11,449 nucleotides of DNA from a virus. Its lineage: Duplodnaviria > Heunggongvirae > Uroviricota > Caudoviricetes. The notes under the pieces are model-generated. The model ran no database searches and was not told where the DNA came from. It saw only the letters and a list, made by a program, of their open reading frames with translations. Each line of letters begins with the position of its first letter. Positions within the stretch are counted from its first letter, which is position 1. Positions 2,589-3,248 of this stretch are shown in pieces. The stretch lies in the IMG/VR virus record IMGVR_UViG_2703718771_000002; one strand, given 5' to 3'. The position numbers and the translations under genes were made by a program.

Positions 2589-3248
2589 ATGAAAATGAAA
2601 TGGTATGAACTGGCTAGATCCAGAATGAAAGAGCTCGGCATAACTCAAGAGAAGTTAGCCGAAGAGCTAGGTATGACGCAGGGTGGAATTGGACACTGGT
2701 TGCGCGGATCTCGTCATCCATCTCTTAGTGATATTGGTGTGGTGTTTAAATACCTTGGTATTGATAACATATCATTCAACCACGACGGGACATTTTCACC
2801 TGTTGGCGAATACTCATCGGCCCCAGTTAAAAAACAATATGAGTACCCTGTTTTTTCTCATGTTCAGGCTGGGATGTTCTCTCCAGAACTCAGAACCTTT
2901 ACCAAAGGTGATGCGGAGAGATTGGTAAGCACAACCAAAAAAGCCAGTGACTCTGCATTCTGGCTTGAGGTTGAAGGTAACTCAATGACCGCACCAACAG
3001 GTTCCAAACCTAGTTTTCCTGACGGGATGTTAATTCTGGTTGACCCTGAGCAAGCTGTTGAGCCCGGCGATTTCTGCATAGCCAGACTTGGTGGTGATGA
3101 ATTTACCTTCAAGAAACTGATCAGGGATAGCGGTCAGGTGTTTCTACAACCACTAAACCCGCAATATCCAATGATCCCATGCAATGAGAGTTGTTCCGTT
3201 GTGGGGAAAGTTATCGCCAGCCAATGGCCTGAAGAGACGTTTGGGTAA
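2589..3248 (+). CDS. cI: cI prophage repressor, LexA/S24 autopeptidase type (lambda cI-like C-terminal domain, distinct N-terminal HTH domain)
   Basis: C-terminal ~150 aa ([29 protein letters not shown] ... [16 protein letters not shown]) match lambda cI as recalled, including the Ala-Gly cleavage site (VQAGMF), Ser nucleophile (EGNSMT) and Lys (FTFKKL). The N-terminal HTH ([22 protein letters not shown]) is unlike lambda. Start is ATG 2589 (possible leaderless start) or ATG 2595 (SD AAGGA 7 nt upstream); the track's TTG at 2547 is rejected. Confidence 0.9.

Follow-up and report, generated by a model that had tools for sequence, protein, structure and literature searches.

We analysed the cI repressor gene carried on an 11,449-nucleotide stretch of viral DNA (Caudoviricetes; IMG/VR record IMGVR_UViG_2703718771_000002), which in its full length we call the window. 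The gene is an intact open reading frame (ORF), and its 219-aa product carries two Pfam domains: HTH_3 at residues 11–58 (E = 1.9e-10, above the gathering score) and Peptidase_S24 at residues 87–209 (E = 1.1e-28). With a helix-turn-helix (HTH) domain and an S24 domain that has an Ala-Gly bond and a Ser/Lys dyad, the protein is of the LexA/lambda-cI type. We assign it with high confidence to the prophage repressors of the VT2-Sakai (Sp5) immunity type, Clade I of the Shiga toxin (Stx)-phage CI proteins, and read it just as confidently as a recombinant of two modules. Coordinates are collected in Table 1.

Positions 2480–3300 (821 nt) are 100% identical at the nucleotide level to the cI region of the Stx phages 1717, YYZ-2008, phi330 and WGPS4/6, and 99.8–99.9% identical to that of VT2-Sakai, Stx2 II, Stx1-converting phage and Nil2. 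The 99.8% identity to VT2-Sakai (AP000422) over all 821 nt, together with six identical operators, places the gene in the VT2-Sakai/Sp5 immunity type. The VT2-Sakai record annotates cI, cro, three OR operators, three OL operators, pR, pRM and pL, and labels the repressor gene "CI protein; similar to bacteriophage lambda CI". For Clade I of the Stx-phage repressors, an overall identity of 61% to lambda CI, the domains HTH_3 and Peptidase_S24, and a conserved S150 have been described (PMC8951638), and Fattah et al. 2000, as cited in PMC10742460, noted homology to lambda CI that is high C-terminally and low N-terminally. Since both the VT2-Sakai annotation and the literature already state a lambda-like C-terminal part, the mosaic is not new; it has been known since about 1999–2000.

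The two modules of cI and their junction

All comparisons with lambda used the authentic cI of NC_001416 (NP_040628). BLASTP gave 71% identity overall. Residues 84–219 (YEYPVF...ETFG) match lambda 102–237 at 135 of 136 positions, whereas the first 83 residues are ~18% identical; in total length, the protein falls 18 residues short of lambda cI. The initial annotation had described an almost residue-for-residue match from the cleavage-site region to the end, which the alignment bears out, preceded by ~90 aa unrelated to lambda. The low identity of that N-terminal part was upheld; its length is 83 residues, and "unrelated" proved too strong. Both N-terminal domains are Pfam HTH_3, the BLASTP alignment extends through the helix-turn-helix, and a phmmer search of PDB with the protein recovered the lambda N-terminal-domain chains 1lli (E = 4.5e-4), 1lmb (3.2e-3) and 1rio (3.7e-3). 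The N-terminal domain is a distant, superfamily-level HTH_3 homologue of lambda's, its similarity being much lower than the C-terminal 99%, and because the kinship reaches only that level the description as a mosaic stands. Lambda Gln33 and Gln44 are retained here as Gln20 and Gln31, and Gly stands where lambda has Ser45.

The C-terminal module matches the PDB lambda cI chains 8gmu, 3bdn, 2ho0 and 1f39 and corresponds to residues 101–236 (8gmu, 3bdn). Its cleavage site (Ala94-Gly95) pairs with A111-G112 of lambda (mature numbering), Ser132 with S149 and Lys175 with K192; none of these residues varies among the 17 aligned sequences. From the 99% identity to lambda fragment 101–236, self-cleavage stimulated by RecA would be expected to inactivate this repressor, consistent with the shared autocleavage machinery that the initial annotation had envisaged. 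It had also envisaged the same cooperativity, which is not guaranteed, as operator spacing differs.

To place the junction, we aligned the DNA with lambda and, in a three-way alignment, with lambda and the Lederbergvirus phage 683R2. Identity to lambda is at chance level before ~2823, intermediate over codons 79–83 and 93% from 2838 (380 of 408 coding nt). Codon by codon, there are 2–3 mismatches in each of codons 71–78 and 1–2 in each of codons 79–83; from codon 84 to the end, only 28 single-base differences occur in 408 nt, all of them silent except the one in codon 112. On the 3′ side, similarity to lambda stops at the stop codon (3246–3248; TAA vs TGA), beyond which the sequences are unrelated. 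A recombination junction inside the gene had been predicted, with protein and DNA alignment to lambda cI proposed as the way to find it. The alignments locate the breakpoint at 2823–2838. Such a junction also agrees with the other boundary, at the stop codon, and with the discordant relatives of the two domains, described below.

The single C-terminal mismatch, Leu112, stands opposite lambda Trp130 of the precursor (W129 of the mature protein). Of the 16 other homologues in the alignment, 15 have Trp at this position and one (P0028) has Met. Among alleles of the same mosaic, those of 683R2 and of DH5alpha-labelled sequence have Trp, and those of the window, FY26 and A65EC have Leu. Given Trp in the homologues and in the 683R2 and DH5alpha-labelled alleles, Leu112 is a derived state of the group of alleles to which those of the Stx phages belong. 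A literature search on the role of lambda Trp129 returned unrelated papers only.

In-frame starts of cI vary across records: 2553 (231 aa, RefSeq WP_001302016.1), 2589 (219 aa) and 2595 (217 aa, VT2-Sakai), with ATG at both 2595 and 2553. The 2553 start falls within the operator/promoter region and precedes the -10 region annotated for pRM. As that -10 region ends at ~2582, the pRM transcript would be expected to begin at ~2589, and the pRM mRNA of lambda is leaderless. Because of this expected transcript start and the analogy with lambda, translation probably begins at 2589 or 2595 rather than at 2553.

Operators and the predicted switch

The divergent cI and cro genes surround three related, predicted 17-bp operators (2506–2580), which we named OR1, OR2 and OR3 in this analysis, and a second trio lies at PL (4735–4809). 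This is the organisation of a lambdoid switch; lambda likewise has divergent cI and cro and three operators each at OR and OL, and in both phages the clusters are 2.2–2.4 kb apart. All six operators are unchanged from VT2-Sakai, and their half-site is ~AARTACA, vs TATCACC in lambda. None of the six has the lambda half-site TATCACCGC, and because the N-terminal domain and the operators both differ from lambda's, the gene does not belong to the imm-lambda group. A different immunity specificity, as the initial annotation had anticipated, is supported by all six operators and by published gel shifts, in which the KDapp of lambda CI was 3.7–6.4 uM on the six VT2-Sa operators, compared with 0.35 uM on lambda OR1 and 0.21 uM on OL1 (PMC10742460).

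Measured centre to centre, the OR operators lie 32 and 26 bp apart and the OL operators 25 and 33 bp, in contrast to 24/23 and 24/20 in lambda. Relative to the promoters, the short and long spacers are ordered differently at OR and OL. OR and OL are 2230 bp apart (2359 bp in lambda), a distance compatible with long-range looping as in lambda. Inverted repeats were sought in both operator regions with a seed of 6 and none was found, the operator half-sites being too short and imperfect; the operators were located by exact matching to those annotated in VT2-Sakai.

The N-terminal domain of cI is 35% identical to the Cro encoded next to it and shares with it the motif TQG[GA]IGHW. Cro is thus an HTH_3 paralogue of the repressor head here, whereas lambda Cro has no such paralogy. 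From these sequence features, and by analogy with the lambda paradigm, we propose that residues 1 to ~62, the HTH_3 domain paralogous to Cro, would read the six AARTACA operators as a dimer, three of them between cI and cro and three before PL, ~2.2 kb away. The bound repressor would then repress pR and pL and autoregulate pRM. Residues 84–219 would supply dimerisation, dimer–dimer contacts and RecA-stimulated self-cleavage at Ala94-Gly95 by Ser132 and Lys175. DNA damage would in this way lead to repressor inactivation, prophage induction and, in Stx phages with this gene, Shiga toxin.

Table 1. Features of the cI region and its surroundings (positions in the window)
Feature	Position	Strand	Remarks
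O-like replication gene, 273 aa	823..1644	-	phrog_345 match over positions 1-295 of 297
cII	1825..2121	-	
cro, 71 aa	2263..2478	-	HTH_3 type (Pfam E 4.2e-12); divergent from cI; cro in VT2-Sakai
OR1, operator nearest cro, AAATACAATATGTACTT	2506..2522	.	exact match to putative operator of VT2-Sakai AP000422
OR2, middle right operator, AAATACACATTGTGCAT	2538..2554	.	exact VT2-Sakai match; adjoins annotated maintenance-promoter -35
OR3, operator nearest cI, CAGTACAGAGCGTAATA	2564..2580	.	exact VT2-Sakai match; overlaps annotated maintenance promoter
cI repressor gene	2589..3248	+	intact ORF, 219 codons + stop; from ORF list, sequence and Pfam
N-terminal module, residues 1-83: HTH DNA-binding domain and first part of linker	2589..2837	+	~18% identity to lambda
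5' junction zone	2823..2838	+	interdomain linker, ~10 codons upstream of Ala-Gly cleavage site
Lambda-type C-terminal module, residues 84-219 + stop	2838..3248	+	cleavage-site region, S24 self-cleavage/oligomerisation domain
Codon 112, TTG (Leu)	2922..2924	+	TGG in lambda (Trp130 precursor / W129 mature)
173-aa ORF	3750..4271	+	between cI and OL, position of lambda rexA/rexB
40-aa ORF	4445..4567	+	between cI and OL, position of lambda rexA/rexB
Intrinsic-terminator-like hairpin	4573..4594	+	from scan; downstream of 40-aa ORF
Left operator, AAATACAAAGCGTTGTA	4735..4751	.	exact match to VT2-Sakai operator
Left operator, TAGAACAAATTGTATTG	4768..4784	.	exact match to VT2-Sakai operator
Left operator, AAGTACATATCGTACTA	4793..4809	.	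exact match to VT2-Sakai operator
PL, TTGACC-17-TACTAT	4782..4810	+	promoter scan; reads toward N gene (4928-5272)
N antiterminator	4928..5272	+	Pfam N_peptide E 1.5e-31

Age and exchange of the C-terminal module

Compared with lambda, the C-terminal module has 27 synonymous changes and one non-synonymous change (Nei–Gojobori dS 0.39, dN 0.003, dN/dS ~0.008). The 27 silent changes and the dS of 0.39 show an old exchange rather than recent transfer from lambda, and the protein sequence of the module is near-invariant under very strong purifying selection.

We computed N-terminal and C-terminal identities separately for 120 database homologues. Among them, lambda-type C-terminal domains (79–99% identical) follow N-terminal domains of at least four classes: the query type (P0001–P0007, N-terminal identity 75–95%); a related type of ~50% identity (P0008–P0025, mainly Salmonella, Enterobacter and Kluyvera), whose lambda-type C-terminal domains are only 80–86% identical; the lambda type, of 237 aa (P0034, P0049, P0063); and an HTH_19-type head in proteins of 212–215 aa (P0053, P0060, P0107). 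Query-type N-terminal domains occur also on distant S24 domains (P0028, P0031). Identities to the N-terminal and C-terminal parts of the window's cI are, respectively, 18% and 99% for lambda, 82% and 83% for P0003, 78% and 57% for P0028, and 70% and 62% for P0031. The closest distinct relatives of the N-terminal module are enterobacterial prophage repressors (P0002–P0007, 75–83%).

The module itself appears to have been recombined. P0107, an E. coli repressor of 214 aa with an HTH_19-type head, becomes 100% identical to lambda and the window only late in the protein and stays so to its end (compared with window 2955–3245), so its breakpoint lies within the S24 domain, past the cleavage-site region, and not in the linker. 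In the comparison of the window, lambda and 683R2, substitutions specific to the window cluster at 2885–3068 and those specific to lambda at 3092–3247 (maximum chi-square permutation p = 0.0016). The N-terminal DNA of the E. coli alleles FY26 (L007) and A65EC (L008) matches the window at all but 1 of the 243 nt compared, but their C-terminal DNA departs from it at 7 and 15, respectively, of 411 nt; these C-terminal differences fall mostly at sites that also separate the window from lambda and resemble gene-conversion patches. Together, the clustered substitutions and allele patches point to continuing homologous exchange within the module between heteroimmune phages. We picture the gene as a recombinant whose ~410-bp C-terminal module is an island of lambda homology between the linker (2823–2838) and the stop codon, drawn from a module family that sits on at least four head classes and is probably still recombining between heteroimmune phages, with breakpoints inside the domain.

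The gene or parts of it are common in E. coli. A match spanning at least 80% of the gene was found in 776 of 5,426 complete genomes, and ~435 further genomes match its C-terminal 62% only. Counted as places, 1435 in 1211 of the 5426 genomes match the gene or its C-terminal module, with a maximum of 3 places per genome, so that co-resident repressors share the same lambda-type C-terminal domain in at least some genomes.

Could the contrast between the two parts have arisen without recombination, by vertical descent from a lambda-like cI whose N-terminal domain diverged faster under immunity selection? That both N-terminal domains are HTH_3 and align weakly would fit, as would extreme purifying selection on the C-terminal domain. 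Yet silent divergence in the C-terminal part is only 0.39 while the N-terminal DNA is unalignable and differs in length by 18 codons; the identity step is abrupt, occupying ~15 nt, and the 3′ boundary is sharp at the stop codon. Moreover, close N-terminal relatives (75–83%) have C-terminal domains that are 79–85% identical to the window's, and others 57%, when lambda's is 99%. The discordance of per-domain identities contradicts vertical descent, to which we give practically no credence. Recent, direct acquisition of the module from phage lambda is very improbable: 135 of 136 identical residues might suggest it, but 27 of the 28 differences per 408 nt are silent, and the window, the 683R2 type and lambda are about equidistant in the module (26–35 differences per 411 nt).

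A two-module recombinant with its own immunity specificity remains our preferred reading, and several points weigh against it. Which lineage was the recipient, and in which direction the exchange ran, cannot be told from protein identities, because C-terminal domains on lambda-type and query-type heads are equally distant from the window's (79–86%). Leu112 in place of a near-invariant Trp, adjoining the cleavage-site region, could alter cleavage or hinge behaviour. Pairwise cooperativity of the lambda style at OR1–OR2 is not assured; as the spacing differs, the cooperative operator pairs may differ from lambda's despite the identical C-terminal domain. At its thresholds, the promoter scan missed the annotated pR and pRM. 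Finally, a report that VT2-Sa and lambda show cross-immunity, by Fattah et al., second-hand through its citation in PMC10742460 and unverified, does not easily fit a fully distinct specificity. The report would instead favour functional cross-immunity with lambda, through shared operator recognition or mixed C-terminal oligomers, with a specificity not really different; the retained Gln20 and Gln31 and the half-site positions in common (A at position 2, A-C at 5–6) would agree. We regard this as unlikely, given that the half-sites differ at 4 of 7 positions, that lambda Ser45 is replaced by Gly, and that lambda CI binds VT2-Sa sites 10- to 30-fold more weakly than OR1/OL1, about as weakly as its weakest own site, OR3 (PMC10742460). 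Somewhat speculatively, mixed dimers or tetramers could form between co-resident heteroimmune repressors through the shared C-terminal domain, considering that C-terminal domains 79–100% identical sit on several heads and that up to three genes occur per genome. Equally tentative is the separate idea that Leu112 tunes the rate of self-cleavage and thus inducibility.

Neighbours, relatives and significance

The neighbours of cI form a standard lambdoid early region, in the orientation opposite to the lambda map. The O-like initiator has 273 aa, compared with 299 aa in VT2-Sakai, and the annotation of O157:H7 PV15-279 includes the same gene, of 822 nt. In place of rexAB, the window has an unrelated 173-aa ORF, which received no Pfam or PADLOC assignment and whose sole PHROGs match is PHROG 2602, of unknown function. 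Because this ORF and the 40-aa ORF lie between cI and OL, with a terminator-like hairpin after them, both may be expressed from the prophage. Another hairpin, of 11 bp and followed by a U run, lies at 3619–3650 (+), ~370 nt past the cI stop (dG -15.9 kcal/mol, z -3.86 vs shuffles); it is missing from the output of the terminator scan. A portion of cI transcription may stop there, ahead of the 173-aa ORF. A scan of the window against Rfam at gathering thresholds gave no match.

Farther along, positions 6335–8419 (+) hold a P22-like recombination module: a Rad52/22-family annealing protein, a single-stranded DNA-binding protein (SSB), an Rv2179c-like 3′-5′ exonuclease and the anti-RecBCD protein Abc2. 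VT2-Sakai and O157:H7 PV15-279, with the same cI, have gam, bet and exo instead. The best phage record covers at most 57% of the window.

The same repressor gene, operators included, is found in VT2-Sakai/Sp5, Stx2 II, Stx1-converting phage, Nil2, 1717, YYZ-2008 and 2851, and this group also shares the neighbours cro, cII, N and the 173-aa ORF. The same mosaic at 97% amino acid identity, with the same junction and cro, occurs in the P22-like Escherichia phages 683R2, 720R6, Dewey, Louie and phi458 and in a DH5alpha-labelled prophage (NZ_CP026085). That group nevertheless represents a separate allele: nucleotide divergence is ~5% N-terminally and ~8.5% C-terminally, position 112 is Trp, the operators differ at a few bases and the flanks are others (in 683R2, N directly follows cI). 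The nearest named N-terminal relatives, at 52–55%, are the C2 repressors of Salmonella phages L and ST64T together with the Oslo, sal4 and sal5 repressors, which have the same organisation of an HTH_3 repressor and an HTH_3 Cro and differ in the recognition helix and presumably in their operators. A full-length 92.7% match in the DH5alpha-labelled assembly had led us to consider phi80 cI; the phage search gave the 683R2 type, and phi80 was absent among the 25 records listed, so that this identification was dropped as unsupported. The phi80 CI protein is cleaved at Cys-Gly rather than Ala-Gly, which also speaks against that identity.

As a textbook-style case of domain-level module exchange among lambdoid phages, the mosaic is confirmed here without new biology. 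Modest additions are that the module is old and constrained, that it is found on at least four head classes, that it shows signs of ongoing internal recombination, and that prophage repressors might engage in cross-talk. The repressor keeps a major group of E. coli O157:H7 Shiga-toxin prophages lysogenic, and its cleavage is the step leading to toxin production, which gives its properties medical relevance. Were Leu112 to affect self-cleavage, it would tune how readily Stx phages with this immunity type are induced. Mixed oligomers, if they form, would couple prophage switches, either lowering the effective repressor of both or giving partial cross-immunity or co-induction, and such coupling could help to explain the VT2-Sa/lambda cross-immunity report and the influence that co-resident prophages have on Stx production.

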